DNA of 64,000 bases from Escherichia phage FL18: the sequence record PP400780. The stretch is one strand, 5' to 3'. Position numbers and translations under genes: made by a program. The first letter of the stretch is position 1, and every line of letters starts with the position of its first letter. The notes beneath the pieces are model-generated. The model was not told where the DNA came from. It saw nothing but the letters and a program-made list of their open reading frames with translations, and searched no databases. Positions 2,452 through 34,665 of the stretch are shown piece after piece.

Positions 2452-2925
2452 ATGTTATTATCAGGCGCAAAATATAAAGAAGAAAAACAAAAATTTTATG
2501 ATGCACAGAATGGTAAGTGTCCTATTTGCCACCGTGAATTAGACCCTGATGTTCAAGGTAACCATCTTGACCACGACCACGAATTAAACGGGCCAAAAGC
2601 CGGTAGAGTTCGTGGATTACTCTGTAATCTGTGCAACGCAGCAGAAGGTCAAATGAAGCATAAGTTCAACCGTTCCGGTCTTAAAGGACGTGGTGTCGAC
2701 TACCTCGAATGGCTTGAAGCTCTTCTTGTTTATTTGAAACAAGATTATTCTGATAATAATATCCATCCTAATTTTGTTCCAGACAAAACTAAAGAGTTCT
2801 CAAGACTAGGTAAAGAGGAAATGATGGCTGAGATGCTTCAAAGAGGATTTGAATATAATGAATCTGACACCAAAACACAGTTAATAACTTCATTTAAGAA
2901 GCAGCTTAGAAAGAGTTTAAAATGA
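2452..2925 (+). CDS. 49: endonuclease VII (Holliday junction resolvase)
   Basis: 157 aa; CPICHRELDP..HLDHDHE..GLLCNLCNAAEG zinc/HNH-like core as in T4 endo VII. Confidence 0.95.
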   Translation: MLLSGAKYKEEKQKFYDAQNGKCPICHRELDPDVQGNHLDHDHELNGPKAGRVRGLLCNLCNAAEGQMKHKFNRSGLKGRGVDYLEWLEALLVYLKQDYSDNNIHPNFVPDKTKEFSRLGKEEMMAEMLQRGFEYNESDTKTQLITSFKKQLRKSLK

Positions 2926-3590: not shown

Positions 3591-4413
3591 GTATTATATA
3601 ATTTATAAAATAACAAATATAATTAATTCAAAGGAATATATCGGTGCGCATAGCACCGATAACATAAATGATGGTTATATGGGATCAGGAACATTGATTC
3701 GTGCCGCTTTATTAAAATATGGTAGAAAAAATTTTAATAAAGAAATTTTACATGTTTTTGATAATGAAAAACAAATGTATGATAAAGAAGCTGAACTCGT
3801 AACCGAAGAGTATTGTCTAAAAGAAAATACATATAATATTAAACCTGGTGGAAAAGGTGGAACTGCCTATGAACAGACACTTGAACATCGCCGCAAAAAT
3901 AGTTTAGCAAATAAAGGTAAAAAGAGAACAGAAGAAACTAAAATAGCTATTTCACGTGCTTTAAAGAAATATAAACGTACGCCAGAGCATCAAGCAAATT
4001 TAAATAAAGCCGTAAGCATAGCTATGAAGCGAAAAGATGTTAGAAGTAAATTAGCTGGAGAGCGGTCTGAGAAAGATAAATTACCTATATCAAACGGTGT
4101 TAAAAAATATTACAATTCTTTGAGTGAAGAAGAACGCGAACTTCATCGCAAGCGAATTATTGAAGGTAAAAAGAATTCTCCCATGTCATTGGAATCTAGA
4201 CAAAAGCTTTCAAAAGCTTTAAAAGGACTTCAAGTTGGTTCAAAAAATCCAATGTATGGAAAAATTTCTCCAACTAGCAAAACCGTTTCAGTTGACGGTA
4301 TTAAATATGATTCAATTAAAAAGTGCTCAAATGCCATAAAAGTTTCTAGACATCTTATACTAAAACGCTGTAATTCTACTGATGAAGCTTGGAAAAATTG
4401 GATATTATTATGA
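3583..4413 (+). CDS. GIY-YIG homing endonuclease (Seg/I-TevI-like)
   Basis: 276 aa; IYKITNIINSKEYIGAHS GIY-YIG motif, repeated KNSPMS/NPMYGK NUMOD3-like modules, basic C-terminal DNA-binding region. Confidence 0.75.
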   Translation: MHRYYIIYKITNIINSKEYIGAHSTDNINDGYMGSGTLIRAALLKYGRKNFNKEILHVFDNEKQMYDKEAELVTEEYCLKENTYNIKPGGKGGTAYEQTLEHRRKNSLANKGKKRTEETKIAISRALKKYKRTPEHQANLNKAVSIAMKRKDVRSKLAGERSEKDKLPISNGVKKYYNSLSEEERELHRKRIIEGKKNSPMSLESRQKLSKALKGLQVGSKNPMYGKISPTSKTVSVDGIKYDSIKKCSNAIKVSRHLILKRCNSTDEAWKNWILL

Positions 4414-4880
4414 ATTATGACAGAATATACCCGTGTTGCTTTGTGAATGGCCCTGGATGCAGGGTCGTTCTTTTCGTTACAGGTTGTTTGCATAAATGCG
4501 AAGGGTGTTATAATAAATCAACATGGAATGCTAGAAATGGTGTTCCATTCACTGGTGAAACACTAGAACAATTAATTGAATGTTTGAATAATGATTATAT
4601 AGAAGGATTGACTATAACCGGAGGTGACCCTCTTTATCCTGATAACAGAGACGTGATTCACTCTGTGGTTCAAACTATTAAAAATCTTTATCCCAATAAA
4701 AGCATTTGGTTGTGGACAGGATATAAGTTTGAAGATATTAAACAACTAGAAATGCTTAAATATGTTGATGTTATTATTGATGGGAAGTATGAGAAAAATC
4801 TTCCGACTAAAAAGCTGTGGCGAGGATCAGATAATCAGCGACTTTGGTCAAATACCGATGTGGTGTGGAAACATGATTAA
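4410..4880 (+). CDS. nrdG: anaerobic ribonucleotide reductase activating protein (radical SAM)
   Basis: 156 aa from internal ATG (MNYDRIYP); CLHKCEGC radical-SAM cluster motif; ATGA coupling to upstream gene. Confidence 0.9.
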   Translation: MNYDRIYPCCFVNGPGCRVVLFVTGCLHKCEGCYNKSTWNARNGVPFTGETLEQLIECLNNDYIEGLTITGGDPLYPDNRDVIHSVVQTIKNLYPNKSIWLWTGYKFEDIKQLEMLKYVDVIIDGKYEKNLPTKKLWRGSDNQRLWSNTDVVWKHD

Positions 4881-7729: not shown

Positions 7730-8287
7730 ATGTCAGAAACTAAGCCTAAATATAATTACGTAAACAATAAAGAGCTTTTACAAGCTATTATTGATTGGAA
7801 AACAGAATTAGCAAATAATAAAGACCCAAATAAAGTAGTTCGTCAGAATGATACTATCGGATTAGCCATTATGCTTATTGCAGAAGGCTTATCTAAACGT
7901 TTCAACTTTTCAGGATACACCCAGTCTTGGAAACAAGAGATGATTGCAGATGGGATTGAAGCCTCTATTAAGGGACTTCATAATTTCGACGAAACTAAGT
8001 ACAATAACCCGCATGCATACATAACTCGAGCTTGTTTTAATGCTTTTGTCCAACGTATCAAAAAAGAACGTAAGGAAGTTGCAAAGAAATATAGTTACTT
8101 CGTTCATAATGTCTACGACAGTCATGACGATGATATGGTAGCGTTGGTAGATGAAACGTTTATTCAAGACATCTACGATAAAATGACGCATTATGAAGAA
8201 TCCGCTTATAAAGCTCCTGGGGCTGAAAAGAAGGAAGTTGTTAGCGATTCGCCTAGTTTGGATTTTTTATATGAGGACGACAATTGA
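7730..8287 (+). CDS. 55: late-transcription sigma factor gp55
   Basis: 185 aa from ATG ([10 protein letters not shown]); matches T4 gp55 N-terminus and length; GAGGTG RBS. Confidence 0.9.
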
Positions 8288-9274: not shown

Positions 9275-10294
9275 ATGAAAATTTTGCACTTAGGCGACTT
9301 CCATATCGGAGTCAAACAAGACGACCCATGGGTTCAAGATATTCAACGTGATGGTATTCGACAAGCAATTGAATACTCTAAGAAACACGGGATTAAAACT
9401 TGGATTCAGTACGGTGATTGGTTTGACGTCCGTAAAGCAATAACACATCGTACAATGGAATTCAATCGTGAAATCGTTGATATGATTTCTAAAGCAGGCA
9501 TTCACGTTCATGTCACGATAGGAAACCATGACATGGCGTTTAAGAATACAATAACACCTAACACTGTTTCTGAATTGTTAACTCAATTTGAAAACTTTAC
9601 TATTTACGAGCATCCGACTACTGTAGATTTTGACGGATGTCTGATTGATATCGTTCCATGGATGTGTGAAGAAAATACAGGTGAAATCTTAGAGCACATC
9701 AAGACTTCTTCTGCCGCATATTGTGTTGGGCACTGGGAACTGAATGGCTTTTATTTCTATAAAGGGATGAAGTCTCATGGGCTTGAACCTGATTTCTTAA
9801 AGACCTATAAACAAGTCTGGTCTGGCCACTTCCATACAATCTCTGAAGCTGCTAACGTCAAATATATTGGGACACCATGGACCCTTACTGCAGGTGATGA
9901 GAACGACCCTCGCGGATTCTGGGTATTTGACACTGATGTTGAACGTATGGAATTTATTCCTAATGAAACAACATGGCATCGACGAATCACTTATCCATTT
10001 AAAGGCAAAATCAATTATTCTGATTATACTAATCTAGCCGTACGTGTTATAGTATCAGAAATTGATTCAGAGTTGACTAAGTTTGAATCTGAACTTGAAA
10101 AAGTAGTTCACTCTCTTCGTATGGTTTCTAAAGTTGATAACAGTGTTGAATCTGATGACGACCAGGAAATCGAGATTAAATCACTTCAAGATATCATTAA
10201 AGAATATATTGACGCGATTCCAGATATCTCAGACGAAGACAGAGAAGCGCTGGTCAAATATTCCAACGAACTTTATATTGAGGCGACACAATGA
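9275..10294 (+). CDS. 47: recombination endonuclease subunit gp47 (Mre11/SbcD-like)
   Basis: 339 aa; phosphoesterase motifs LHLGDFH, GDWFD, GNHD, GHWE, GHFH. Confidence 0.9.
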   Translation: MKILHLGDFHIGVKQDDPWVQDIQRDGIRQAIEYSKKHGIKTWIQYGDWFDVRKAITHRTMEFNREIVDMISKAGIHVHVTIGNHDMAFKNTITPNTVSELLTQFENFTIYEHPTTVDFDGCLIDIVPWMCEENTGEILEHIKTSSAAYCVGHWELNGFYFYKGMKSHGLEPDFLKTYKQVWSGHFHTISEAANVKYIGTPWTLTAGDENDPRGFWVFDTDVERMEFIPNETTWHRRITYPFKGKINYSDYTNLAVRVIVSEIDSELTKFESELEKVVHSLRMVSKVDNSVESDDDQEIEIKSLQDIIKEYIDAIPDISDEDREALVKYSNELYIEATQ

Positions 10295-12714: not shown

Positions 12715-13131
12715 ATGTTTACTACTGTTAAAGGTTTCACTGCTGCTGATCTGAAAGTTACTTCTATCCGTACTGACGCTAACCCACATAACCATAATCG
12801 TGTTCGTAAAGCATGGGTCCTGCATTGTGATGAAGCAAGTGCTAAAAAACTCCAATCTTTGCCACAAGAAACTCGTTTTATGATTTATGGTTTTATTGAT
12901 AACGATGTATCTGATATGTGGATTCATCTGATGCGTAAGCACTATAAAGATTCTATCGAAGCAGGTGCTAAAATCGTTCTTGATAAAGACGGTTCTGAGC
13001 GTCTGGAAGATTTCTACTGTGTTGATGCCGACGAACAACTAATTGCAGCTGGCGAAATTGTTGCTTCTAAAATTCCAGAATATATTGAATCACTGCCTGA
13101 AGCTATTAAAAAGCAGATGGTTGCTGCTTGA
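12715..13131 (+). CDS. hypothetical protein (position of T4 rpbA)
   Basis: 138-aa ORF between gene 46 and gene 45; assignment by synteny only. Confidence 0.55.
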   Translation: MFTTVKGFTAADLKVTSIRTDANPHNHNRVRKAWVLHCDEASAKKLQSLPQETRFMIYGFIDNDVSDMWIHLMRKHYKDSIEAGAKIVLDKDGSERLEDFYCVDADEQLIAAGEIVASKIPEYIESLPEAIKKQMVAA

Positions 13132-14028
13132 TAATTATGAATTTAATATATCTTATAACCTTTTATAATCGTGAGATTAAAAATGAATACCCGTGTTATT
13201 ATATAGGTTCTAAAGTTTCGTGTCATTTTAATGGAAAGGATATTATTGAAGATTCTACCGGTAAAATATATACCGGTAGTGTTAATTCCTCGTATTCTCC
13301 TTTATATAACAGATTAATAGACCAAGGCGAATATTCTGTAAAAATTTTAGGCGAAACCACATTAGACCCTAGAAGAATAGAAAGACTATTCCAACTCAAT
13401 GTTAAAGCCGTTTCAAATGAAAAATATTTTAATAAGGCTTATGCTAACGAGAAGTCTAGAATATCAGCTAAAGGATATGCACCGTATAAAAATTTAAAAA
13501 CAGGCAAAATAGTAAAACTTTCTAAAAACGAAATAAACGAAGATTACGTCGGTGTTAGAAAAAATTGCAAATTGTCGGAGAATCATTTAAACGCAATTAG
13601 AGAATTTCAAAAAAACATATTGGACCAAAGAACGAAGAGAGAAAGTTTCTATTCGTTCTAAAAAAATGTTTAACGATAGAGATTTTGCTTTAAAATTTAA
13701 AGATATAATGAATTCTCCTAATGTTAAAGATAAAATAAAAATATCTAAAACATTGTATTGGTCTAAACCTGAAAATAGAGCAAAGGCCTCTATCGCAGCT
13801 TCGAAAAGAAATGCAACCAAAGAATTTAAGGATAAATTCAGAAAATCTAAAGCTAGAGGTACATGGATATTTCATGAACAAAAATTAAAGGAATTGTGGA
13901 TTGCTTTAGGAAAACCAAGTTATATTACATTTAGAAAACATGCAATTCAGCATGGTTTTAATGATGAATCATACCAAGGTGCTATCCGGTCTTGGACAAA
14001 TTATTATGCTAATAGGAAACCTAAATGA
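13128..14028 (+). pseudogene. GIY-YIG-like homing endonuclease gene split in two frames (13128..13661 and 13666..14028)
   Basis: N-part has YYIGSK/KYFNKAYAN motifs paralogous to ORF 2922..3590; C-part is basic DNA-binding-like; frames differ by one at an A7 run (ctaaaaaaatg). Confidence 0.5.
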
Positions 14029-16766: not shown

Positions 16767-19478
16767 ATGAAAGAATTTTACTTAACGGTTGAACAGATTG
16801 GTGATTCAATTTTTGAACGTTACATCGATTCTAATGGCCGTGAACGTACTCGTGAAGTAGAATATAAACCATCACTGTTTGCTCATTGTCCAGAAAGTCA
16901 GGCTACGAAATATTTCGATATCTACGGTAAGCCGTGTACTCGTAAGTTGTTCGCTAATATGCGTGATGCCTCCCAATGGATTAAACGCATGGAAGATATC
17001 GGACTTGAAGCACTTGGCATGGACGATTTCAAATTGGCGTATTTGTCTGACACTTATAACTATGAAATCAAATACGACCATACAAAAATTCGTGTGGCTA
17101 ACTTCGACATCGAAGTAACATCTCCGGATGGGTTCCCTGAGCCATCACAAGCAAAACATCCGATTGATGCTATCACCCATTATGACTCAATTGACGACAG
17201 GTTCTACGTATTTGATCTATTGAATTCTCCATATGGTAATGTAGAAGAATGGTCTATTGAAATCGCTGCTAAGCTTCAAGAACAAGGCGGTGATGAAGTT
17301 CCATCTGAAATTATCGATAAAATCATTTATATGCCGTTCGATAACGAAAAAGAATTGTTGATGGAATATCTCAACTTCTGGCAACAGAAAACTCCTGTCA
17401 TTTTGACTGGATGGAACGTTGAGTCATTCGATATTCCATATGTGTATAACCGAATCAAGAATATTTTTGGCGAATCTACTGCGAAACGTTTATCACCGCA
17501 TCGTAAAACTCGTGTTAAAGTTATCGAAAACATGTATGGTTCTCGTGAAATCATTACATTGTTCGGTATCTCTGTTCTTGATTACATTGACCTTTACAAA
17601 AAATTCTCTTTTACCAATCAACCGTCGTATTCTCTGGATTACATTTCAGAATTTGAATTGAACGTTGGTAAACTGAAATATGATGGCCCTATTTCTAAGC
17701 TTCGTGAAAGCAATCACCAACGATATATAAGCTATAACATCATCGACGTGTATCGTGTATTGCAAATTGATGCTAAGCGTCAGTTCATCAACTTGAGTTT
17801 GGACATGGGTTATTATGCTAAGATACAGATTCAATCTGTGTTTAGCCCAATTAAAACATGGGATGCTATTATTTTTAATAGCCTTAAAGAGCAGAACAAG
17901 GTGATTCCACAAGGTCGTTCTCACCCGGTTCAACCTTATCCCGGCGCTTTTGTTAAGGAACCTATTCCAAATCGATACAAATATGTAATGAGTTTCGACC
18001 TTACATCTCTGTATCCAAGTATTATTCGCCAAGTGAATATTAGCCCGGAAACAATAGCAGGAACGTTTAAAGTAGCTCCATTGCATGATTATATTAACGC
18101 AATCGCTGAACGTCCTTCAGATGTGTACAGTTGCTCTCCTAACGGCATGATGTATTATAAAGACCGTGATGGTGTAGTTCCAACTGAAATCACTAAGGTC
18201 TTTAATCAACGTAAAGAACATAAAGGTTACATGCTTGCAGCTCAACGTAATGGTGAAATAATTAAAGAGGCATTGCATAATCCTAATCTTTCTGTTGACG
18301 AACCATTAGATGTTGATTATCGTTTCGACTTCAGCGATGAGATTAAAGAAAAGATTAAAAAGTTGTCTGCTAAATCTCTTAATGAAATGTTGTTTAGAGC
18401 TCAACGTACTGAAGTTGCAGGTATGACTGCACAAATTAACCGTAAATTGCTTATCAACTCGCTTTATGGTGCACTTGGAAACGTTTGGTTCCGTTATTAC
18501 GATTTGCGTAATGCAACTGCAATCACAACATTCGGGCAAATGGCTTTACAGTGGATTGAACGTAAAGTTAATGAATATCTGAATGAAGTTTGTGGTACAG
18601 AAGGTGAAGCTTTCGTTCTATATGGTGATACAGACTCCATTTATGTATCTGCAGATAAAATTATTGATAAGGTTGGTGAATCTAAATTCCGTGATACCAA
18701 CCATTGGGTAGACTTCTTAGATAAGTTTGCACGTGAACGTATGGAACCTGCTATTGATAGAGGTTTCCGTGAAATGTGCGAATACATGAACAATAAACAA
18801 CACTTAATGTTCATGGACCGAGAAGCTATCGCTGGGCCTCCGCTTGGTTCTAAAGGTATTGGCGGATTTTGGACTGGTAAGAAACGTTATGCATTAAACG
18901 TGTGGGATATGGAAGGTACTCGTTACGCTGAGCCTAAACTCAAAATCATGGGTCTAGAAACTCAGAAATCTTCGACCCCTAAAGCAGTACAGAAAGCTCT
19001 TAAAGAATGTATTCGTCGTATGCTTCAAGAAGGTGAAGAATCATTACAAGAATATTTTAAAGAGTTTGAAAAAGAATTCCGTCAATTGAATTATATTAGC
19101 ATCGCGTCGGTATCTTCTGCGAATAACATTGCTAAATATGACGTAGGTGGATTCCCTGGTCCTAAATGCCCGTTCCATATTCGTGGAATTCTGACATATA
19201 ACCGAGCTATCAAAGGTAATATCGATGCACCACAAGTTGTAGAAGGTGAAAAAGTATATGTTCTGCCTTTACGTGAAGGAAACCCATTCGGTGATAAATG
19301 TATCGCATGGCCTTCTGGTACTGAAATCACAGATTTAATTAAAGACGATGTACTTCATTGGATGGACTACACTGTTCTCCTTGAGAAGACATTTATTAAA
19401 CCACTTGAAGGATTCACATCAGCAGCGAAACTCGATTATGAGAAGAAAGCATCTCTGTTCGATATGTTCGATTTTTGA
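16767..19478 (+). CDS. 43: DNA polymerase gp43 (family B)
   Basis: 903 aa; exonuclease motif FDIE, polymerase motifs SLYPS, NSLYG, YGDTDS. Confidence 0.97.
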   Translation: MKEFYLTVEQIGDSIFERYIDSNGRERTREVEYKPSLFAHCPESQATKYFDIYGKPCTRKLFANMRDASQWIKRMEDIGLEALGMDDFKLAYLSDTYNYEIKYDHTKIRVANFDIEVTSPDGFPEPSQAKHPIDAITHYDSIDDRFYVFDLLNSPYGNVEEWSIEIAAKLQEQGGDEVPSEIIDKIIYMPFDNEKELLMEYLNFWQQKTPVILTGWNVESFDIPYVYNRIKNIFGESTAKRLSPHRKTRVKVIENMYGSREIITLFGISVLDYIDLYKKFSFTNQPSYSLDYISEFELNVGKLKYDGPISKLRESNHQRYISYNIIDVYRVLQIDAKRQFINLSLDMGYYAKIQIQSVFSPIKTWDAIIFNSLKEQNKVIPQGRSHPVQPYPGAFVKEPIPNRYKYVMSFDLTSLYPSIIRQVNISPETIAGTFKVAPLHDYINAIAERPSDVYSCSPNGMMYYKDRDGVVPTEITKVFNQRKEHKGYMLAAQRNGEIIKEALHNPNLSVDEPLDVDYRFDFSDEIKEKIKKLSAKSLNEMLFRAQRTEVAGMTAQINRKLLINSLYGALGNVWFRYYDLRNATAITTFGQMALQWIERKVNEYLNEVCGTEGEAFVLYGDTDSIYVSADKIIDKVGESKFRDTNHWVDFLDKFARERMEPAIDRGFREMCEYMNNKQHLMFMDREAIAGPPLGSKGIGGFWTGKKRYALNVWDMEGTRYAEPKLKIMGLETQKSSTPKAVQKALKECIRRMLQEGEESLQEYFKEFEKEFRQLNYISIASVSSANNIAKYDVGGFPGPKCPFHIRGILTYNRAIKGNIDAPQVVEGEKVYVLPLREGNPFGDKCIAWPSGTEITDLIKDDVLHWMDYTVLLEKTFIKPLEGFTSAAKLDYEKKASLFDMFDF

Positions 19479-19518: not shown

Positions 19519-20154
19519 ATGAAAACTACTCCTATTACTATCGCTATTGACGCAATCATAAAACAAGCTTCTTCTTTGGCCGCTATGGCCAAAGTAATTA
19601 GTCAAAACCCTGCTCGTTATAATGCTATTCTAGAAACTCTTCGACGCCCTGGACTTAGTAATTATGAAAGCCGGGTAATTATTACAGGTGTTGGTAAGAA
19701 TGCTAATATCGCAACTAAAGCTTCCGAGACATTTGCTTCACTAGGTATTCCTAGCATGTATTTGAACACTGGGCATTATTCTCACGGTGATGCAGGATTC
19801 ATTGCGCCTAATGATGTGTTGATTCATATTAGTCGTTCTGGTAAGACTGAAGAAATGATAGGTGTTGCTAAACATCTTCGTATGATTCGTCCTCAGGTTA
19901 AACAGATTCTGTTACATTGTAACCCAGACATTCCACAAGAATACGAAGCTCTTTTTGATTATACGTTCTGTACTGGCATCGCGGTAGAGGTTGATGAGAA
20001 TTCTCTGGCTCCGACTATGTCCACTACATTGTTGTTAGCGCTTATCGATACGTTTGCTATCAACCTTTCGTCTGAACGTGGATTTACCTCTAATGATTTC
20101 CTTAAGTTCCATCCAGGCGGTGCACTAGGTGCCATGTTACGAGGCGAACAATGA
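19519..20154 (+). CDS. SIS-domain sugar-phosphate isomerase, arabinose-5-phosphate isomerase-like (KdsD/KpsF N-domain)
   Basis: 211 aa; VIITGVGKNANIATK, HGDAG, HISRSGKTEE, FHPGGALG match the KdsD/GutQ SIS signature; no CBS domains. Confidence 0.8.
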   Translation: MKTTPITIAIDAIIKQASSLAAMAKVISQNPARYNAILETLRRPGLSNYESRVIITGVGKNANIATKASETFASLGIPSMYLNTGHYSHGDAGFIAPNDVLIHISRSGKTEEMIGVAKHLRMIRPQVKQILLHCNPDIPQEYEALFDYTFCTGIAVEVDENSLAPTMSTTLLLALIDTFAINLSSERGFTSNDFLKFHPGGALGAMLRGEQ

Positions 20155-20280
20155 AAGCAATAACAATAGGACTTTTACTATTGATGCTTGTCATGACTAT
20201 CTACTGGAGCTTAACGGCTCCGGTAATGATTCCAACACTTGTAATTGGATGGATTATGATTGGACTACAAGCAAAGTATG

Positions 20281-20307
20281 AATGCTTTAACTAGAATAGT
20301 GTACAAT
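20281..20307 (+). promoter_or_regulatory. MotA-box middle promoter upstream of nucleotidyltransferase-kinase gene
   Basis: AATGCTTTAA box about 19-20 nt upstream of TACAAT -10. Confidence 0.45.
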
Positions 20308-20335
20308 ACTCCTACTTACCAATGAGGACTTTAAC

Positions 20336-22021
20336 ATGAAAAAAGCTGTTATTCTTGGTGCTGGACTGGCAACTCGTTTGTATCCAATAACGCATCATAT
20401 TCCTAAGGTGCTTGTTAACTATAAACAAGATACTATTCTGAGCAATTTGTATACAATTTATTCTGACCTTGGCGCAGATGAAATTATTGTAGTAGTTCAT
20501 TCAAAATTTGCTGAAACTGTTCGAGCTTATTGTGAACAAGAAGGGTTCAATGTGACTATTCGTACAGTTGATGAAGCGTATGGTTCTGCTTATGCTCTTG
20601 CTAAATTACACAAAGATTTAGACGGCCATAATGTAATTGTTAACTGGTGTGATATTATTCCTGATTTTGGTTCATGGTCTTGGAATGTTAACGCAATCTA
20701 TGTTAAGGGTGACGAATGTCGATATAATTTCGACGGTGAAAATATCACTAACGTAGGTTCAACAGGTGGTAATGTTGTAGGAATTTATCAGTTCAAAGAC
20801 TGGGAATTCTATATGGGTTCTACTGATGAGGAAATTCATGAATACTGCAAAGGACGTGATTTCGTAGAATTCCTTTACGGCAGCGCATTCAATAAATCAG
20901 AGCTTATGAATCTAATTGATTTAGGTGATATGCCTAAACTTGAAAAAGCTCATGAAGTTCGTGAACTTAATCGTAGTTTTAATGCAGTTGAAATTGGTGA
21001 AGAAACTGTAACTAAATTCGCATTAACCGAACAGGGTCGAGCTCTTCAGAAAGATGAGATTTCGTGGTATCTTAAAGTGAAATCAGATTCAGTTCCTCAG
21101 TTAGTTTCTGTTAATGAAAATAACTTTGAAATGGAACGCATTAAAGGTAAGCCTGCATTTGAATATATTAAATCCAAATCAAGTCTTGCTCGTCCACAAA
21201 TTGTTGATGCAATTTTAGATGCACTGAAATTCAGCACAGACACTTATTTTGTAAGTCCTGAAACTGTTCGTCGTGATTTCACTAAAGAATTCTATACGAA
21301 AGTTATTGATCGTTGTGAAAGCATTCAACCATTGATTGATTCATTTGGTAAAATCACACATGTGAACTACACTAAGATTGGACGTCTGAAGCCAATGCTG
21401 AAACAAGCTTTAGAACACCTCATTCGTTATCATAACCGTTCTCAGGGACAGTACTCTGTTATTCACGGTGACCCGAACTTCAGTAATACTATGATTACTG
21501 ATAATGGCGAAGTCAAGTTTATCGACCCTCGTGGATATTTTGGTGAAACCAAGATTTACGGGCCAAAATTGTACGATGAAGCTAAAGTGCTTTATGCTGT
21601 TTCAGGTTATGATGAATTCAATGCTAATCCGACCTGGGGGCAGTTTACTATTGATGAAACAACTTGTAATGTGACTATTAACATCAATCCATTAGTTTAC
21701 AAATATAGAAAGATGAGTTCGTTTAACGAGTATCATCATTTGGCAGTGGCAATTATCTGGATTGCATTAGGCGGTTATTTCAAGAATAATCCACTTAAAG
21801 CGGTAGCCGCATATTATAAAGGTATGGAACTTCTGACTAAGCAATTACGTAACATGGGCCGTGTACTTCAGGACGGCTCTATTAGTTATGACGTAGCAGA
21901 ACCTGTAACGGCTACTCTGATTACAAAAAATCCTGGTAAATGGGTACTAACTGATAAAGAAACTGGTGTTTCCTATCGTCCAATCGGTGGCGATATCACT
22001 CATCAATGGGAACGAATCTAA
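20336..22021 (+). CDS. bifunctional sugar-1-phosphate nucleotidyltransferase / APH-fold sugar kinase
   Basis: 561 aa; N-terminal AVILGAGLATRLYPIT nucleotidyltransferase loop; C-terminal HGDPNFSN...FIDPRG phosphotransferase catalytic/Mg loops. Confidence 0.75.
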   Translation: MKKAVILGAGLATRLYPITHHIPKVLVNYKQDTILSNLYTIYSDLGADEIIVVVHSKFAETVRAYCEQEGFNVTIRTVDEAYGSAYALAKLHKDLDGHNVIVNWCDIIPDFGSWSWNVNAIYVKGDECRYNFDGENITNVGSTGGNVVGIYQFKDWEFYMGSTDEEIHEYCKGRDFVEFLYGSAFNKSELMNLIDLGDMPKLEKAHEVRELNRSFNAVEIGEETVTKFALTEQGRALQKDEISWYLKVKSDSVPQLVSVNENNFEMERIKGKPAFEYIKSKSSLARPQIVDAILDALKFSTDTYFVSPETVRRDFTKEFYTKVIDRCESIQPLIDSFGKITHVNYTKIGRLKPMLKQALEHLIRYHNRSQGQYSVIHGDPNFSNTMITDNGEVKFIDPRGYFGETKIYGPKLYDEAKVLYAVSGYDEFNANPTWGQFTIDETTCNVTININPLVYKYRKMSSFNEYHHLAVAIIWIALGGYFKNNPLKAVAAYYKGMELLTKQLRNMGRVLQDGSISYDVAEPVTATLITKNPGKWVLTDKETGVSYRPIGGDITHQWERI

Positions 22022-22407
22022 TGCACCGTGTAGAAAACATGCTTAATCTTTGTTTTGATGTCGATGATTGTATAACAGAGTGGAATAACAATCGTGATTA
22101 CGTGAACTTCAAACCTGACGTCGAAATGGTGTCTGCCATTAATGCCCTGTATGATGCAGGGCATACCATAACGCTTTACACTGCTCGCGGTATGAAGTCA
22201 GTAGGTCCTGGACGTATAGCAATTGACATTCTCCCAAGTCTGATTCAGAACTTGGAAAACATTGGTTTGAAGTACCATAATTTGCTAACACATAAACCAG
22301 TATATGATTGGATTATCGACGACAAAGCTATGCGTCCTGACGAATTCAAAGCTCTTATGAATAAAGGCGAATTCGAAACATTTAAATCGTATAAACCGAA
22401 TCTATAA
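22021..22407 (+). CDS. HAD-superfamily phosphatase (KdsC-like size)
   Basis: 128 aa from ATG overlapping upstream stop (TAATG); HAD motif I CFDVDDCIT. Confidence 0.65.
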   Translation: MHRVENMLNLCFDVDDCITEWNNNRDYVNFKPDVEMVSAINALYDAGHTITLYTARGMKSVGPGRIAIDILPSLIQNLENIGLKYHNLLTHKPVYDWIIDDKAMRPDEFKALMNKGEFETFKSYKPNL

Positions 22408-22463
22408 TAATTTAAGTAAGACCTGCAAAAACCATCGCGTCAATTAACGTGAGATGCAAAAAA

Positions 22464-23624
22464 ATGAATACTTTTAAAATTGGAACGAATTTTGATTTAG
22501 CTCTTCTTGATAAAATCGTAGAGCTCAATAAAACTTATCCTAATAGCTTGATAAACGAAGTATACGGCTCTACAAGAGAAATGGCTTTTGTAGCAGCCAG
22601 ACCTGATTTTAGGCTTCCTGACGTTGACAAAAAGATGTTAGAAGATTACGTTAAACGTTGTAACGAATTAGGTATTTGCTTTAACTATACACTCAACACG
22701 ATAAATCCTGGTTCAAAAAGAGAACTAGTTGAGTGGAAGAAGAAAGCTATTCAGGATTATGTTCAGTATCTTTGGTCAATAGGTGTATGGCGTATTACTA
22801 TCGCTAACCCTGTTGTTATGGAAATTGTTCGTGAAGTCAATAAAGACATTGAGATTGAAGTTTCAACAATTCTACATGTCGATGCTGTAACTCAAATCAA
22901 ATACTTGCATGACCAGTATAATATCAAAAAGGTCTGCTGTGGAATTCATAAGAACCGTTCAGTTTCTTTCCTGAAGCGTGCAGCAGAGTTTTGCAATAAG
23001 AACAATATAATATTTGAAGTTCTTGTAAATGAGTTCTGTTCTAATGCTGGTAAAGGGTATACAACACATTGTAGCTATCGTGACTCTTGCTATATTTTCC
23101 ATAGTACTGATGTTACAGCTGATGATGCTAAATCCTTAAACGGATATCCTATGCAGCACTGTATTAAAGCTCGTGATACAGACCCATTTAACTGGTTGAG
23201 AACTCGTTTTGTTCGTCCTCAAGATTTGAAACTTTATAATGATATTGGTATCACTCAATTCAAAGTTTCAGGACGTACAGGTAGCACAGACTACATTTTG
23301 AAAGTTCTTGAAGCATACGCTTCTGAAAAGTTTGAAGGTAATTTGTTAGAACTGTGGAAGCCTTTAGAGACTATTTTCACTCTTGAAAACGAAACTGAGT
23401 TTTCACATACAGTAAATATTGAAACCTCTTTGTTAGATGGCTTTTTAGAAAAAAGGTGGTTCAGACATCCAGATTTCGATTGTGCTAATGAAATCTGCGG
23501 GACGACGTGTACATATTGTGAAAGATATTATAAACGTCAATTATCTAAAAACGGGTTAGCAGAAAACTCTATATCTATTATTGATATAACTAACTCTGAT
23601 GACGCTTTGAGGTACCCGGAATGA
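22464..23624 (+). CDS. U32-peptidase-family-like protein (TIM-barrel, Cys-rich)
   Basis: 386 aa from first ATG; N-terminal VYGS..FVAAR..NYTLNT resembles U32 barrel; EFCSNAGKGYTTHCSYRDSC cysteine cluster; family assignment tentative. Confidence 0.45.
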   Translation: MNTFKIGTNFDLALLDKIVELNKTYPNSLINEVYGSTREMAFVAARPDFRLPDVDKKMLEDYVKRCNELGICFNYTLNTINPGSKRELVEWKKKAIQDYVQYLWSIGVWRITIANPVVMEIVREVNKDIEIEVSTILHVDAVTQIKYLHDQYNIKKVCCGIHKNRSVSFLKRAAEFCNKNNIIFEVLVNEFCSNAGKGYTTHCSYRDSCYIFHSTDVTADDAKSLNGYPMQHCIKARDTDPFNWLRTRFVRPQDLKLYNDIGITQFKVSGRTGSTDYILKVLEAYASEKFEGNLLELWKPLETIFTLENETEFSHTVNIETSLLDGFLEKRWFRHPDFDCANEICGTTCTYCERYYKRQLSKNGLAENSISIIDITNSDDALRYPE

Positions 23625-23860
23625 TTTCTAGAAAAACTTTTAATCACCAACTTAATGAAGAGATTTTGACTACGAAACTGAACACTAACGAACAAATTCT
23701 TAAAAAGGCCCTTATGGGCCTGTTTGAAACCAAAGCGGCTAAAGTGATTAAAGGACCTGTTCAATTAGAATATTACGCTGATACATTTCTTCATAGTGTT
23801 CTTGGAAGTATCGATGCTGAAGCTTTACGTTATATCAACATTGCCAAGAAATTCAAATAA
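23621..23860 (+). CDS. hypothetical protein (79 aa)
   Basis: ATGA-coupled ORF inside the cassette. Confidence 0.5.
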   Translation: MISRKTFNHQLNEEILTTKLNTNEQILKKALMGLFETKAAKVIKGPVQLEYYADTFLHSVLGSIDAEALRYINIAKKFK

Positions 23861-23883
23861 GCTTTACGAATTGAGTATATAAT
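23859..23883 (+). promoter_or_regulatory. MotA-box middle promoter upstream of hydroxymethylase gene
   Basis: AAGCTTTAC box about 18 nt upstream of TATATAAT. Confidence 0.4.
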
Positions 23884-23902
23884 AAATTGTATTGAGGTAA
23901 AC

Positions 23903-24619
23903 ATGGGGAAACATAACACAATGAAATATATCAAAGCCGCAGATTTTCAAACCGCATTTAAAGCAGTCAATCGTGAAATTTTAGAAAACCCGGAATTCGT
24001 AACTGATTCTCGTATTGGACGTTGTAATGAAATTGGGTCTATGACAGTAGTTGTTGACACTCCATCATCATTCAAAATGACTGACCCACGTATTAACCGC
24101 ATCTCTTATGAATATGCCGAAGACTTCTGGAAGTTTATGATTTCTGGTGGTACCAACGCAGAAGAAGCGTTTAAGGCATATCCTAATGTCGCTAAATTTA
24201 TTTCTAAACCAAAATCAGATGTTTTGCCGGCGAACTTCAATACTTTCTATGGTCCTCGCATTGCGGCCCAATTACCAGCTCTTCTAAAAGAACTTAAAGA
24301 GAAGCCTAACTCTCGAAGAGTTGTGTTCCAAATTCTAGAAAGTTCTGATCAGGCTTTGCTTGATTCGGATGAAACGCTTGAATATCCATGTACTGACTCA
24401 GTGACTTATTATATTCGTGATGGTAAGCTTTATACCCACTGTCATATGCGTTCTCAGAACTGTGCTGTTGTTATGCAGTTGGATTTTTATCTCCAAGGAA
24501 AATTACTTCATTATATCGCTAACGAATGCGGTGTAGAAGTTGGTGATTATACTCATACCATGGTAAGTGCCCATGTGTTTGAACGTGATTTTGATTATGT
24601 TAAAGGATTCCTTGACTAA
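23903..24619 (+). CDS. thymidylate-synthase-fold pyrimidine hydroxymethylase, divergent (gene 42 position; likely dCMP hydroxymethylase)
   Basis: 238 aa; PNSRRVVFQIL, catalytic-Cys context YPCTDSVTYYIRDGKL, MRSQN, HTMVSAHVFERDF align with T4 gp42/TS motifs but overall divergent. Confidence 0.65.
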   Translation: MGKHNTMKYIKAADFQTAFKAVNREILENPEFVTDSRIGRCNEIGSMTVVVDTPSSFKMTDPRINRISYEYAEDFWKFMISGGTNAEEAFKAYPNVAKFISKPKSDVLPANFNTFYGPRIAAQLPALLKELKEKPNSRRVVFQILESSDQALLDSDETLEYPCTDSVTYYIRDGKLYTHCHMRSQNCAVVMQLDFYLQGKLLHYIANECGVEVGDYTHTMVSAHVFERDFDYVKGFLD

Positions 24620-25518
24620 TGGCTATTTTCCGCGTACCAATCTTGAGTATGCGGTCTTATGAAACTGGACAGTATGCTATCCTTAAGGATGGCAACTTCC
24701 AACTTCATTTGCACCGTGCTAATCCGGGTGATGTGATTACATATCCACGTAATGCATCTGATATTAAAGAATGCGAACGTCTTTTCCCAGAATTTAAGTT
24801 TGTTCCATTATGGTATAAAGATAACGCTTATAACACTCGTAAATATTTCTGGTCTGAAAATGAATTTGTGGTTGATTCATTAATTGCTTATTATGATTGC
24901 GATTTTCTAATCACAGATATAACTGGATATGACGGCGCTTTTGATGTAGAATTCAATTTCAATATCACTGCAGACCCTAATAAACCACGTTTTTATATTG
25001 ACGAATTCTTAAAAACCGACATGTTGTCGGTTAATCGTTCAATCCAAACAACTGTGTTGAATGAACGTCAAAAAGAAGTGCTGGTTAACGCAGGTGCAGA
25101 TGGTAATAAGATTATCGTAACGCAGAAAGTTATACGTCCTTCCATCATGCAGCGTCTTGTAGGTGATTTGGCTCCTATTTATCTAGATGGTATTTTTCAT
25201 CCATTTCGAATTAGTGACCCGTGCTATCGTTTTGAACAAGTGGTTGAATGTGCAATTCAATTAGGTCAACCGCTTTATATAACCGATCCAAATAATAGCT
25301 TTGACAGAAATAAGTATCCTGAAGAAGCGTTGATTCGAATTTTTAAACCAACTAAAACTGAGTACTATCAAATTCTTAAAGGACGTCCGAAGATTCAATA
25401 TTTCGAAAATCCTGAAGAGGTATTTCATCCAGGTCTTGGTGAGTTCATCTACTTTAATGCTTTAATTTCTTCACCGTATAATATACCTAAATATGAAGAT
25501 GTCGTAATCGAGGAATAA
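24619..25518 (+). CDS. hypothetical protein at beta-glucosyltransferase locus (candidate DNA sugar transferase)
   Basis: 299 aa; no similarity to T4 beta-gt noticed; function by position only. Confidence 0.5.
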   Translation: MAIFRVPILSMRSYETGQYAILKDGNFQLHLHRANPGDVITYPRNASDIKECERLFPEFKFVPLWYKDNAYNTRKYFWSENEFVVDSLIAYYDCDFLITDITGYDGAFDVEFNFNITADPNKPRFYIDEFLKTDMLSVNRSIQTTVLNERQKEVLVNAGADGNKIIVTQKVIRPSIMQRLVGDLAPIYLDGIFHPFRISDPCYRFEQVVECAIQLGQPLYITDPNNSFDRNKYPEEALIRIFKPTKTEYYQILKGRPKIQYFENPEEVFHPGLGEFIYFNALISSPYNIPKYEDVVIEE

Positions 25519-25519
25519 A

Positions 25520-26068
25520 ATGGCTAAAATTATTTTAGTAGATGGCCCGGATAATGCTGGTAAAACAACTTTCATTAATGACATAATGGAAATTAGTGAA
25601 AGATATGTAAAAATTGATTTCCCTAAACGAACAGTTGATGGACGTTTCGATGTTAAGTCTCGAAATGAAGTTGGCTGTTTTGAAACGATGTTGAATTATT
25701 TAGACCCTACTAAGATTTATCTGTTAGACCGTGGATATATTAGTAACTGGGTTTACGGACGTATTCGACAAGATGCGGACTCGGTTCTTGACGTTTATGA
25801 ACAGGATTATATTCGTCTTTGCCAAAACCATGATGTGTTCACAATTATTTTAACACGTAACGAAATGACTGAAAGTTTTGAAGACGACCTTATTACTTTG
25901 TCTTCATTCGGTTTTAATACAGTCATTTCACATTTTGAAGAGTTTGCAATTCATAACAAAATCCAAACGTATCAATTACTTAATCATGATGGTGCTAACA
26001 AAGTTATAGGATTTAATGCAAGCGAACGTAATGGTTTGATTACAGAAATCATCAAATGGGCTCGTTAA
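25520..26068 (+). CDS. P-loop nucleotide kinase, thymidylate-kinase-like
   Basis: 182 aa; Walker A VDGPDNAGKTT, LLDRGY (DRY/H-like) motif. Confidence 0.65.
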   Translation: MAKIILVDGPDNAGKTTFINDIMEISERYVKIDFPKRTVDGRFDVKSRNEVGCFETMLNYLDPTKIYLLDRGYISNWVYGRIRQDADSVLDVYEQDYIRLCQNHDVFTIILTRNEMTESFEDDLITLSSFGFNTVISHFEEFAIHNKIQTYQLLNHDGANKVIGFNASERNGLITEIIKWAR

Positions 26069-26167: not shown

Positions 26168-27340
26168 ATGTCTGATTTAAAATCTCGTCTGATTAAAGCT
26201 TCTACTTCTAAAATGACTGCAGACTTGACTAAGTCTAAGCTGTTTAATAATCGTGATGAAGTCCCTACTCGTATTCCGATGTTGAATATTGCACTAGGTG
26301 GTGCTCTGAATGCAGGATTGCAATCAGGCTTGACTATTTTTGCTGCACCTTCTAAACACTTTAAAACGTTGTTTGGACTGACCATGGTTGCAGCATATAT
26401 GAAGAAATATAAAGATGCAATCTGTTTGTTTTATGACTCAGAATTCGGTGCTTCAGAATCTTATTTTCGTTCAATGGGTGTTGATTTAGACCGTGTAGTT
26501 CATACACCAATTCAGTCAGTCGAACAACTTAAAGTTGATATGACTAATCAGCTTGACGCTATTGAACGCGGTGATAAAGTTATTATCTTTATCGATTCAA
26601 TCGGTAATACTGCATCTAAGAAAGAAACCGAAGATGCATTGAACGAGAAAGTTGTAGGTGATATGTCTCGTGCTAAGGCACTTAAATCTCTTTTCCGTAT
26701 TGTGACTCCTTATCTGACTATTAAAGATATTCCATGTGTTGCAATCAACCATACCGCAATGGAAATTGGTGGATTGTACCCTAAAGAGATTATGGGCGGC
26801 GGTACAGGTATTCTTTACTCGGCTAACACTGTATTCTTTATCTCTAAACGTCAGGTTAAGGATGGCACTGAATTGACCGGTTATGACTTCACGTTGAAAG
26901 CAGAAAAATCTCGTACAGTTAAAGAGAAATCTACTTTCCCAATCACAGTTAATTTTGATGGTGGTATCGACCCATTCAGTGGCTTGTTAGAAATGGCAAC
27001 TGAAATCGGTTTTGTAGTTAAGCCTAAAGCTGGTTGGTATGCTCGTGAATTCCTTGACGAAGAAACAGGTGAAATGATTCGTGAAGAGAAATCATGGCGT
27101 GCTAAAGCTACTGATTGTGTAGAATTCTGGGGTCCTTTGTTTAAACACAAACCTTTCCGAGATGCAATTGAAACTAAATATAAACTAGGTGCTATCTCTT
27201 CTATTAAAGAAGTTGATGACGCTGTTAATGACCTTATTAATTGCAAAGCAACAACTAAAGTTCCGGTTAAAACTTCTGATGCTCCGTCTGCAGCAGATAT
27301 AGAAAACGACCTTGACGAAATGGAAGATTTCGATGAATAA
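26168..27340 (+). CDS. uvsX: RecA-like recombinase UvsX
   Basis: 390 aa, close match to T4 UvsX as recalled (MSDLKSRLIKASTSK..., acidic C-terminus). Confidence 0.95.
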   Translation: MSDLKSRLIKASTSKMTADLTKSKLFNNRDEVPTRIPMLNIALGGALNAGLQSGLTIFAAPSKHFKTLFGLTMVAAYMKKYKDAICLFYDSEFGASESYFRSMGVDLDRVVHTPIQSVEQLKVDMTNQLDAIERGDKVIIFIDSIGNTASKKETEDALNEKVVGDMSRAKALKSLFRIVTPYLTIKDIPCVAINHTAMEIGGLYPKEIMGGGTGILYSANTVFFISKRQVKDGTELTGYDFTLKAEKSRTVKEKSTFPITVNFDGGIDPFSGLLEMATEIGFVVKPKAGWYAREFLDEETGEMIREEKSWRAKATDCVEFWGPLFKHKPFRDAIETKYKLGAISSIKEVDDAVNDLINCKATTKVPVKTSDAPSAADIENDLDEMEDFDE

Positions 27341-30854: not shown

Positions 30855-31103
30855 ATGGAATTATTCGTAGCTAGTTCAGTAGCAGTTTTAATCGCAGGTA
30901 TTGGTTCAATCATCATTTACATGTTGCCTTGGGTAATCGCACTTATTCGTGGCACAAAAAGCACAACAGCAATCTTCTTTGTATCTTTACTCTTTAACTG
31001 GACGATGATTGGTTGGATTGGAACTTTAATTTGGTCTATCGTTGCCGAAAAGAAATCTGCTCAGCAGCCTCAACAAGTAATTATTATTCGCGAAAAAGAA
31101 TAA
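30855..31103 (+). CDS. imm: superinfection immunity protein Imm-family membrane protein
   Basis: 82 aa, two TM helices; YMLPWVIALIRG...NWTMIGWIGTLIWSI fits the Imm family signature as I recall it. Confidence 0.55.
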   Translation: MELFVASSVAVLIAGIGSIIIYMLPWVIALIRGTKSTTAIFFVSLLFNWTMIGWIGTLIWSIVAEKKSAQQPQQVIIIREKE

Positions 31104-34143: not shown

Positions 34144-34665
34144 ATGGCACACTTTAACGAATGTTCACAACTTATTTCTGGTGTTGATAAAGCAGAAGAA
34201 GCTTATTTTAATGCTCTGATTCACGAAGATAAAGACCCACTGCAGGTAATGCTTGATATGCAGAAATCTTTACAGGTTCTTCTGGCAAATGACAAGCCTG
34301 AACATAACAAACATCCTGATGAATTGGCTACTGCTGGTGATGTTGTTGATTGGCTGCGTAATCAGAAAGATTATATTGATGATGAATTTCGTGAACTGCT
34401 GACTTCACTTGGCGGTATGAGCAATGGTGAAAAAGCTGCCAGCAGTGTATGGAAGCCGTGGAAGGCACAACACGCTGAATATCGAAATCGTCGTATCGAT
34501 GAACTGTCTCCTGAAGACCAGCTTGAAATTAAATTTGAAATGATTGATATTCTGCATTTCGTTCTAAATATGTTCCAAGGTCTAGGACTTTCTGCTGAAG
34601 AAATCTTCAAACTGTATTATCTGAAAAACCAACACAACTTTGAACGTCAGGATAATGGTTACTAA
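34144..34665 (+). CDS. 56: dCTP pyrophosphatase gp56 (MazG-like)
   Basis: 173 aa from ATG (MAHFNEC); close to T4 gp56 as recalled. Confidence 0.92.
   Translation: MAHFNECSQLISGVDKAEEAYFNALIHEDKDPLQVMLDMQKSLQVLLANDKPEHNKHPDELATAGDVVDWLRNQKDYIDDEFRELLTSLGGMSNGEKAASSVWKPWKAQHAEYRNRRIDELSPEDQLEIKFEMIDILHFVLNMFQGLGLSAEEIFKLYYLKNQHNFERQDNGY

Follow-up and report, generated by a model that had tools for sequence, protein, structure and literature searches.

Between the DNA polymerase gene gp43 (16767-19478) and uvsX (26168-27340), Escherichia phage FL18 (sequence record PP400780, of which a stretch of 64,000 nucleotides, referred to as the window, was analysed) carries a cassette of genes for nucleotide-sugar synthesis and base modification. 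Among its products, a protein of the Peptidase_U32 family (U32) is of particular interest. The gp43 gene and the following 6.8 kb share 95-99.5% nucleotide identity with about 155 Mosigvirus (RB69-like) records, and the window is an RB69-like Mosigvirus segment of a T-even-type phage genome. The eight open reading frames (ORFs) reported for this interval in an initial annotation were all recovered at their positions, intact and on the + strand; a ninth, coding for a hydrophobic protein of 47 amino acids (aa), had been overlooked. In the order of the genome, the nine ORFs are the following, TS standing for thymidylate synthase, 5hoC for 5-hydroxycytosine, and Ara-1,5-P2 and Ara-1-P for arabinose 1,5-bisphosphate and arabinose 1-phosphate.

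19519-20154, + strand: SIS-domain sugar-phosphate isomerase, 211 aa, RB69 gp55 equivalent (Pfam SIS, 39.8 bits; phrog_5670 'arabinose 5-phosphate isomerase', E 1.6e-116)
20151-20294, + strand: strongly hydrophobic 47-aa ORF overlapping the stop codon of the SIS gene (translation MKAITIGLLLLMLVMTIYWSLTAPVMIPTLVIGWIMIGLQAKYECFN; phrog_3610, E 6.8e-27)
20336-22021, + strand: bifunctional enzyme, 561 aa, with an N-terminal sugar-1-phosphate nucleotidyltransferase and a C-terminal kinase; RB69 gp52:53, AfhE-like (phage HY126)
22006-22407, + strand: small HAD-type phosphatase, 133 aa, RB69 gp51, AfhF-like (PDB 9iqw, E 4e-87); predicted to convert Ara-1,5-P2 into Ara-1-P
22449-23624, + strand: U32-family protein, 391 aa, RB69 gp50 (Pfam Peptidase_U32, 42.2 bits; cut-off 22.4)
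23621-23860, + strand: 79-aa ORF, RB69 ORF049c, overlapping the U32 stop codon; present in Mosigviruses at 80-100% identity and in a few relatives
23903-24619, + strand: predicted 5-hydroxy-dCMP synthase of TS fold, 238 aa, RB69 gp48 equivalent, in the slot of T4 gene 42 (Pfam Thymidylat_synt, 56.9 bits; cut-off 24.3)
24619-25518, + strand: GT-B-fold glycosyltransferase, 299 aa, RB69 gp46:47, in the slot of T4 beta-gt; predicted first arabinosyltransferase on 5hoC
25520-26068, + strand: thymidylate-kinase-like (TMPK-like) P-loop protein, 182 aa, RB69 gp45 (phrog_761 'thymidylate kinase', E 6.8e-45; weak DTMP_kinase P-loop match)

The domain identities proposed initially agree with Pfam, NCBIfam and PHROGs, by which SIS, NTP-transferase with a kinase-like C-terminus, HAD, Peptidase_U32, TS-fold and TMPK-like proteins are recognised. 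Isomerase, kinase/pyrophosphorylase fusion, HAD phosphatase, TS-fold hydroxylase, GT-B transferase and TMPK-like gene are all co-located between gp43 and uvsX. The gene order is that of RB69 ORF045c-055c, and the comparison across T-even genomes that had been suggested as a check finds the same cluster, in synteny, in RB69, JK45, Bas47, and 15 T4-like genomes of the IMG/VR database.

In T4 (NC_000866), the corresponding order is 43, imm.1, imm, 42, beta-gt, segA, uvsX. The view that the imm-42-beta-gt segment of T4 has been replaced is correct in that the gene set is a different one, but imm is relocated, not lost; it is found at 30855-31103 (Imm_superinfect, 57 bits) beside spackle and downstream of gene 41, whereas in T4 it lies between 43 and 42. 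Since the slots of T4 gene 42 and beta-gt still hold a TS-fold enzyme and a glycosyltransferase, the arrangement amounts to a partly in-place substitution together with six or seven added genes. In the Dhakavirus IME08, imm still adjoins gene 43.

Very probably, the cassette is the published arabinosyl-5hoC cluster of RB69-type phages, and there is essentially no evidence against this identity. Genes and gene order between gp43 and uvsX are the same as in RB69 gp45-gp55 and the Afh system of HY126, with 97-100% protein identity, and the transferase gene following gp39 as well as the dCTPase are also shared. While the published RB69 sequence splits two of the genes due to sequencing errors, both are intact in the window (561 aa and 299 aa), and while some relatives possess a homing endonuclease gene between the phosphatase and U32 genes, the window has none. 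The same cluster has reportedly been described by He et al. (Nat Chem Biol 2026) and by Mahler et al. (Cell Host Microbe 2025). The assignment of RB69 gp45-gp55 to arabinosyl-5hoC synthesis (Lee et al., Nucleic Acids Research (NAR) 2026, PMC13326640; preprint June 2025) renders out of date the initial statement that such a pathway had not been characterised; the idea of a self-contained cassette of the RB69 type for the synthesis of a nucleotide-activated pentose, namely arabinose, and for base modification matches the published assignments. The cassette is, thus, another copy of an already known pathway, described by four groups between 2018 and 2026. From the letters of the DNA alone, the published sugar route had been recovered almost exactly, while the base chemistry was wrong, as it first was in the field. 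The TMPK-like and U32-like members had been left without a role, and it is the latter that turns out to be of interest.

Synthesis and arabinosylation of the modified base

The pathway would start with the conversion of dCMP into 5-hydroxy-dCMP (5hodCMP) by the TS-fold enzyme, using flavin and O2, as has been shown by others in close homologs. The window protein is identical in 233 of its 238 residues (98%) to PDB 9IQC/9IR2, which, like 9IQW, presumably are HY126 structures; its PDB matches also include TS and MilA. When the protein is aligned with ThyA of E. coli and gp42 of T4, residues C163, E160, D194, and N186 correspond to ThyA positions 146, 143, 177, and 169, respectively, by which the catalytic cysteine (ThyA C146), the exchange N177D (dCMP specificity) and the exchange L143D/E are all present. 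The diagnostic exchange D169N is the signature of 5hodCMP synthases (Lee et al., NAR 2026, PMC13326640); both the window protein (N186) and five orthologs have it, T4 gp42 having retained the aspartate (D171). ThyA Glu58 and Trp80, both retained by T4 gp42, are replaced by F75 and A97, so that the gp42-type set of Asp169, Glu58, and Trp80 is missing from the window protein, whose overall identity to gp42 is 24.8%. RB69 gp48 makes 5hodC, into which 18O enters from O2, and a flavin is purified along with the enzyme; flavin/O2-dependent 5hodCMP formation was likewise shown for a HY126 homolog (PMC13326640). Judged by its residues and its relatives, the window protein is predicted to be a flavin/O2-dependent 5hodCMP synthase.

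That the enzyme would instead be a divergent dCMP hydroxymethylase, with arabinose carried on hydroxymethylcytosine (ara-hmC) as assumed in the initial annotation, is very improbable. This assumption has behind it the position of the gene in the T4 gene 42 slot, its annotation as dCMP hydroxymethylase in many records and the naming of ara-hmC for RB69 by Thomas et al. 2018 (PMC6024577). It conflicts with the asparagine at ThyA position 169, with phenylalanine and alanine in place of Glu58 and Trp80, with the low identity to gp42 and with the 18O-labelled 5hodC formed by RB69 gp48, and the 2018 assignment for RB69 is now called erroneous (PMC13390438). These residues, the near-identity to the solved structure 9IQC and the ara-hmC call now regarded as an error together point to 5hoC rather than hydroxymethylcytosine as the acceptor. 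In RB69 and the Acinetobacter phage DLP3, cytosine is replaced by mono- and poly-arabinosyl-5hoC, in which an ether bond joins the sugar to C5 itself (PMC13326640), and 5-ara-dC together with 5-ara-ara-dC was found in the Mosigvirus phage NP (PMC13390438); for both RB69 and NP, the ether-linked 5-O-arabinosyl-dC, lacking a CH2 bridge, is on record. Considering the near-identity of the present cluster to those of RB69 and NP, the virion DNA would contain mono- and di-arabinosyl-5hoC.

In two distant jumbo-phage contigs, denoted L024 (548-9607) and L025 (6739-9594), a gene of the Flavodoxin_2 family with a weaker FMN_red match precedes the pair of TS-fold and transferase genes. Such a neighbour agrees with the need of the TS-fold hydroxylase for flavin and suggests that a flavin reductase is dedicated to it.

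The subsequent steps draw on two further genes, which are located outside the cassette.

about 34144-34665, + strand: gp56 dCTPase (Pfam dUTPase_2, 28.7 bits; cut-off 22.9), whose removal of dCTP leaves only the modified nucleotide for incorporation
46317-47417, + strand: second glycosyltransferase, 366 aa, RB69 ORF003c/gp3 type, directly after topoisomerase gp39 (phrog_8302, E 3.6e-222)

Phosphorylation of 5hodCMP would be accomplished by a dNMP kinase and the competing dCTP would be removed by gp56, both as shown in close homologs. The dCTPase is present, as had been stated; its JK45 equivalent is annotated as nucleoside triphosphate pyrophosphohydrolase, and RB69p028 is listed as dCTPase (PMC13326640). 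For the kinase step, the TMPK-like protein is probably a dedicated enzyme for the modified dCMP. Its gene co-occurs with that of the transferase in 15/15 T4-like loci and in 12 of 31 distant U32 lineages; a search of the PDB by sequence gave no informative match for the 182-aa protein, and a thymidylate-kinase fold is given for RB69 gp45 (PMC13326640, Table 1).

The sugar donor would be derived from ribulose-5-phosphate, which the SIS protein is predicted to convert into arabinose-5-phosphate, a role also predicted for gp55 (PMC13326640). The protein consists of the SIS domain only and lacks the tandem CBS domains that mark KdsD/GutQ; its scores with the NCBIfam models KpsF/GutQ (111 bits, cut-off 203.7) and KdsD (106 bits, cut-off 505) both remain under the equivalog cut-offs. 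It is a truncated relative which probably works as an arabinose-5-phosphate isomerase. Conversion of arabinose-5-phosphate via Ara-1,5-P2 and Ara-1-P into UDP-arabinofuranose (UDP-Araf) would be catalysed by the bifunctional enzyme and the HAD phosphatase, in line with close homologs. The 561-aa protein is 99.5% identical to RB69 ORF052c+053c, contains Pfam NTP_transferase at residues 3-99 and weak kinase-family matches at 344-409, and matches PDB 1jyk (E 2e-5); by analogy, it is the predicted arabinose-5-phosphate 1-kinase and UDP-Araf pyrophosphorylase. The phosphatase is near-identical to 9iqw, with 1xpj as a further PDB match, and scores 50.5 bits with the NCBIfam model TIGR01689, capsule biosynthesis phosphatase. 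For HY126, the same sequence of intermediates was established with AfhE and AfhF in the work of He et al., within the limits of its summary in PMC13326640, and according to this summary the kinase acts before the phosphatase. The initial scheme of isomerase, phosphatase, kinase, pyrophosphorylase and transferase, therefore, named the roles as published, but placed kinase and phosphatase in the wrong order.

The GT-B transferase of the cassette would place the first arabinose onto the 5-hydroxyl group, either at the nucleotide stage or in the DNA (PMC13326640), and the gp3-type transferase the second, to give mono- and di-arabinosyl-5hoC in place of cytosine. The 299-aa protein has no Pfam or PDB match at the sequence level. 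Its AlphaFold 2 (AF2) model (predicted local distance difference test, pLDDT, 94.6; predicted template modelling score, pTM, 0.89) shows the two Rossmann domains of the GT-B fold and is matched by Foldseek with probability 1.00 to MshA 3c4q (template modelling score, TM, 0.60), 5ze7 (TM 0.60), 7qsg, and UDP-GlcNAc 2-epimerases, at TM values of 0.5-0.6. A transferase within the cassette, as had been postulated, would be the protein that was then listed as unknown, but a second one lies outside the interval considered at that time. About 155 Mosigvirus records, JS09 among them, contain the 366-aa transferase with no less than 95% identity; Acinetobacter phages have two copies of it per genome, with 42% identity. 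Neither sequence similarity of the two transferases to T4 beta-gt nor to one another was detected. The role of first arabinosyltransferase was proposed for gp46:47, single transferases being inactive on 5hoC DNA in vitro (PMC13326640), and that of second arabinosyltransferase for gp3 (PMC6024577, PMC13326640).

With the T4 system (gp42, alpha-gt, beta-gt, gp56, gp1), the pathway shares a TS-fold enzyme acting on dCMP prior to replication, a dCTPase, glycosyltransferases acting on the new hydroxyl group, partly the same gene slots, and T4-style middle-promoter motifs. It differs in that flavin/O2 hydroxylation takes the place of folate-dependent hydroxymethylation, that an ether-linked pentose takes the place of a CH2-O-linked glucose, that the transferases have no detectable similarity to beta-gt, and that, unlike T4, the phage makes its own sugar donor, UDP-Araf. 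Rhizobium phage RL38J1, which produces galactosyl/glucosyl-5hoC, has a comparable trio of TS-fold D169N hydroxylase, kinase-like protein and GT-B transferase, the sugars being hexoses there and arabinose here.

The U32 protein as a candidate second hydroxylase

The U32 protein is the best-conserved protein of the region; it has no role in the published pathway, and its gene neighbourhoods point to prephenate chemistry. Among PDB folds, its AF2 model (pLDDT 90.5) is matched best by the U32 protein 5d88 (TM 0.71, normalised to the target), while comparison with the PDB by sequence gave no informative match. The cysteines C208, C214, and C238 are invariant and align with C169/C176/C193 of UbiU, which are published 4Fe-4S ligands, with C169/C176/C192 of RlhA, of which C169 and C176 are essential residues, and with C170/C177/C193 of TrhP. 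An extra CX4CX3CX2C cluster near the C-terminus is likewise invariant. Characterised U32 enzymes are O2-independent hydroxylases, with RlhA forming 5-hydroxycytidine (ho5C2501) in 23S rRNA and TrhP 5-hydroxyuridine (ho5U34) in tRNA; prephenate is the oxygen donor or a requirement, and it was shown to be the donor for UbiU/V of anaerobic ubiquinone synthesis (PMC10990095, PMC5727448, PMC6599085).

Family membership, gene neighbourhoods and the apparent displacement of the TS-fold enzyme described below suggest that the U32 protein may be a prephenate-dependent, O2-independent hydroxylase acting at C5 of pyrimidines, namely of cytosine, and making 5-hydroxypyrimidine deoxynucleotides, and we consider the chances for this to be evenly divided. 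It would then be an Fe-S enzyme and a second hydroxylase which, like RlhA, TrhP, and UbiU/V, takes the oxygen from prephenate, and which supplies the 5-hydroxypyrimidine under conditions that prevent the flavin/O2 enzyme from working; prephenate would be provided by the host or, in most related phages, by an adjacent chorismate mutase. Common to this protein and RlhA, TrhP, and UbiU/V are the Peptidase_U32 domain and, at published ligand positions, cysteines in a CX(n)C...C arrangement; a link to prephenate supply may also be shared, and the pairing of U32 and TS-fold enzymes would resemble that of O2-dependent and O2-independent partners in TrhO/TrhP and UbiI,H,F/UbiU,V. The window protein differs by belonging to a separate clade, by its additional C-terminal cluster and by its presumed substrate, which would be a deoxynucleotide or DNA, the other enzymes acting on RNA or a quinone.

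Most records annotate the gene as 'peptidase', and the best structural match is itself named U32 peptidase. A collagenase-like peptidase unrelated to DNA modification is nevertheless hardly credible, because those U32 proteins for which a role has been defined are Fe-S hydroxylases, the cysteine ligands do not vary and the gene context is consistently one of nucleotide metabolism.

The U32 gene is the most constrained gene of the region, with a nonsynonymous divergence (pN) of 0.08-0.15 at a saturated synonymous divergence (pS) of 0.66-0.81. Between the window and Proteus/Shewanella phages, identity amounts to 82% for U32, 65% for the DNA polymerase and 42-54% for the bifunctional enzyme. Saturated pS together with low pN indicates purifying selection on U32 and not recent transfer; recent horizontal transfer as a cause of its cross-genus identity of 82-89% was discarded, the synonymous sites being saturated as in the neighbouring genes.

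In 13 of the 15 IMG/VR T4-like genomes, U32 adjoins a gene for chorismate mutase (Pfam CM_2 above threshold), the two exceptions being Klebsiella phage Marfa and the type to which the phage of the window belongs. The gene following U32 passes the CM_2 threshold in phages of Proteus, Yersinia, Edwardsiella, Erwinia, and Shewanella; scores of 33-47 bits were obtained for the ORFs in the neighbouring slot of PEi26, phiR1-RT (g048), Virsaitis27, Proteus PM2, and Thanatos-2. In Thanatos-2, U32 and chorismate mutase have moved as a unit and are still inside the cluster.

More distant U32 relatives (37-58% identity) are found in large uncultivated phage contigs amid genes for dCMP deaminase, NT5C, deoxynucleoside kinase (dNK), uracil-DNA glycosylase, and kinases. 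Dereplication of the distant loci gave 31 lineages, in 5 of which a chorismate mutase is adjacent to U32. A fusion of 3-deoxy-D-arabino-heptulosonate 7-phosphate (DAHP) synthase and chorismate mutase stands beside U32 at three distant loci, equalling two of these lineages, and a stand-alone gene of the DAHP synthase family at one. A transferase homolog is encoded at most 10 kb from U32 in 19 of the 31 lineages, and for 18 of these 19 no TS homolog was found within 10 kb, even at E<=1. Nine of the 19 combine isomerase, kinase/pyrophosphorylase and transferase genes in the absence of a TS homolog within 10 kb. Two distant transferase relatives are accompanied by a TS homolog and a Flavodoxin_2-family gene, without U32. 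The simplest reading of these patterns is that there would be two interchangeable hydroxylase modules, one of TS fold depending on flavin and O2 and one of U32 fold depending on prephenate, both of which would be present in enterobacterial T4-like phages. That the U32 route runs parallel to the TS-fold enzyme in enterobacterial phages and supplants it altogether in many uncultivated phages seems to us about equally open to either answer.

Three further observations concern the distant loci. Phage-borne shikimate entry enzymes lie beside U32 in the uncultivated phages L052 (8399-9430), L055 (7290-8354), L056 (8323-9384), and L014 (8145-8891). Locus L016 (5971-13179) combines a transferase homolog and U32 with a glycosyltransferase of Tet-associated type (weak match), a gene of the dUTPase/dCTP-deaminase family and a UDP-galactopyranose mutase, by which it is likened to RL38J1; the set may point to a hydroxypyrimidine that carries galactofuranose and is formed with no TS-fold enzyme. 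Locus L012 (7001-13360) has two U32-family genes, 49% and 22% identical to the window protein, with NT5C, a nicotinamide mononucleotide transporter, a deoxynucleoside kinase, a radical SAM enzyme and a nucleoside deoxyribosyltransferase as neighbours, and may represent a different nucleotide-modification pathway.

RNA is the substrate of all characterised nucleic-acid U32 hydroxylases, and the C-terminal cysteine pair of the window protein could tentatively be aligned with C611/C614 of RlhA. The protein might accordingly be a phage RNA hydroxylase of the RlhA/TrhP type, modifying host or phage tRNA or rRNA to tune translation, with its place in the cluster being incidental. This is distinctly unlikely, considering that U32 is always encoded inside the DNA-modification cluster beside a TS homolog or a transferase, that it remains within the cluster in Thanatos-2 when moving with chorismate mutase, that its distant relatives occur in contexts of deoxynucleotide metabolism, and that the 391-aa protein is devoid of the long C-terminal extension of RlhA (653 aa).

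An action of U32 in the sugar branch, or as a reductase, is somewhat easier to imagine but still unlikely. The RB69 protein appears as a single entry in Table 1 of Lee et al. (PMC13326640), 'sugar or heterocycle reductase', and is never discussed there, which also tells against a hydroxylase; the annotation in phage AlbertHofmann/Bas47 of the BASEL collection reads 'putative enzyme involved in UDP-arabinose biosynthesis', and in the nine distant lineages mentioned above U32 shares a block with the isomerase and kinase/pyrophosphorylase genes. On the other hand, UDP-Araf was reconstituted from arabinose-5-phosphate with AfhE and AfhF homologs only, Acinetobacter phages and Dhakavirus have the sugar genes without U32, and other U32 relatives stand beside dCMP deaminase, NT5C, and dNK in places where sugar genes are missing. 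Nor would a sugar pathway explain why chorismate mutase and DAHP synthase genes repeatedly adjoin U32, although the family DAHP_synth_1 also covers 3-deoxy-D-manno-octulosonate 8-phosphate (KDO8P) synthase.

Several points weigh against a prephenate-dependent DNA-precursor hydroxylase. Of the four canonical Fe-S ligands, no more than three could be aligned, candidates for the fourth being the invariant C163, C182, or C197 or the C-terminal cluster, and BLAST similarity to the U32 proteins of E. coli is not significant, the relationship being visible at the profile level only. The window's phage type lacks chorismate mutase and would rely on PheA/TyrA of the host. The scan for loci devoid of TS covered flanks of 10 kb, so that a TS homolog could lie farther away on the same genome. 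Dhakaviruses of E. coli (IME08) have the cluster without U32, and no U32 matches were seen among Acinetobacter phages, which reportedly make arabinosyl-5hoC; U32 would, thus, be dispensable, at least in air. The window isolate lacks nrdD, for which reason anoxic specialisation is not evident from the window; when compared with U32 as an anaerobic marker, NrdD is widespread among the matches listed. In the literature searched, no phage U32 protein or chorismate mutase has been tied to DNA hydroxylation, and He et al. 2026 and Mahler et al. 2025 may address U32. With regard to another use of prephenate, formation of carboxy-S-adenosylmethionine (Cx-SAM) by CmoA, no CmoA or methyltransferase match was obtained among the cassette proteins, the chorismate mutase loci not having been screened for CmoA.

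If U32 did act as an O2-independent hydroxylase on deoxynucleotides, this would explain how gut phages that destroy dCTP, yet use an O2-requiring hydroxylase, replicate without oxygen. It would be the first prephenate-dependent U32 hydroxylase directed to DNA and the third aerobic/anaerobic pair beside TrhO/TrhP and UbiIHF/UbiUV, and a kind of hydroxylation that was discovered recently on RNA and quinones would be found to reach DNA precursors as well. The combination of U32 with a GT-B transferase and no TS homolog would then be a marker for hypermodified genomes among uncultivated phages, which is relevant to phage therapy, restriction evasion and the sequencing of modified DNA.

Transcription motifs, small ORFs and homing endonucleases

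Motifs resembling the MotA box of T4-type middle promoters precede two genes of the cassette, as had been noted in the initial annotation; both are pattern matches only.

20283-20307, + strand: MotA-box-like middle-promoter motif TGCTTTAACTAGAATAGTGTACAAT, fitting TGCTTNA-N11-13-TANNNT, just upstream of the 561-aa gene
25458-25482, + strand: MotA-box-like middle-promoter motif TGCTTTAATTTCTTCACCGTATAAT, just upstream of the 182-aa gene

The pattern (TGCTTNA, 11-13 nt, TANNNT) occurs 20 times in the window against 3.9 expected, an approximately five-fold excess. Sigma-70-type promoters and intrinsic terminators within the cassette are not above chance. The absence of alpha-gt between genes 47 and 55 was borne out, since no ORF of more than 107 aa is present from the expected position of gene 55 (about 7730-8287, taken from the annotation of JK45) to gene 47 (9275-10294).

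The 47-aa ORF, probably encoding a small membrane protein, is conserved across genera, a 144-bp ORF being annotated at its place in NRG-P0074, JK45, PEi26, and Virsaitis27; no role is given to it in the published pathway schemes. The 79-aa ORF, which is under weak constraint, is 45% identical to g049 of phiR1-RT, which is located between U32 and a genuine chorismate mutase gene. Its interpretation as a degenerate chorismate mutase was rejected, as there is no CM_2 match even at E<=10 and phiR1-RT possesses the homolog plus a separate chorismate mutase. Many Mosigvirus copies are cut to 47-58 aa, and identity is 89-95% compared to at least 99% for the overlapping U32 gene; frequent truncation and higher variation suggest a decaying or dispensable ORF.

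A Seg/GIY-YIG homing endonuclease gene is inserted between the phosphatase and U32 genes of JM17, NRG-P0074, phiR1-RT, PEi26, and Virsaitis27, with none at the corresponding position of the window (22407-22449), which makes the cassette a target site of homing endonucleases. At the place where nrdD is missing from the window, gene 49 (2452-2925) is followed by two NUMOD3 homing-endonuclease-like ORFs (2922-3590 and 3583-4413) and nrdG (4410-4880). The ORF at 3583-4413 and nrdG match, at 99% identity, the SegH-nrdG segment of RB3-type Tequatroviruses; as no phage record of the collection searched covers at least 80% of the segment 2800-4500, the arrangement with a lone nrdG appears to be unreported. 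Between rpbA (12715-13131) and gene 45, finally, the window has about 850-900 bp more than JK45 (13128-14028), and this extra DNA encodes a 120-aa ORF without family match and a homing-endonuclease-like ORF of 177 aa (phrog_7504, E 2e-17).

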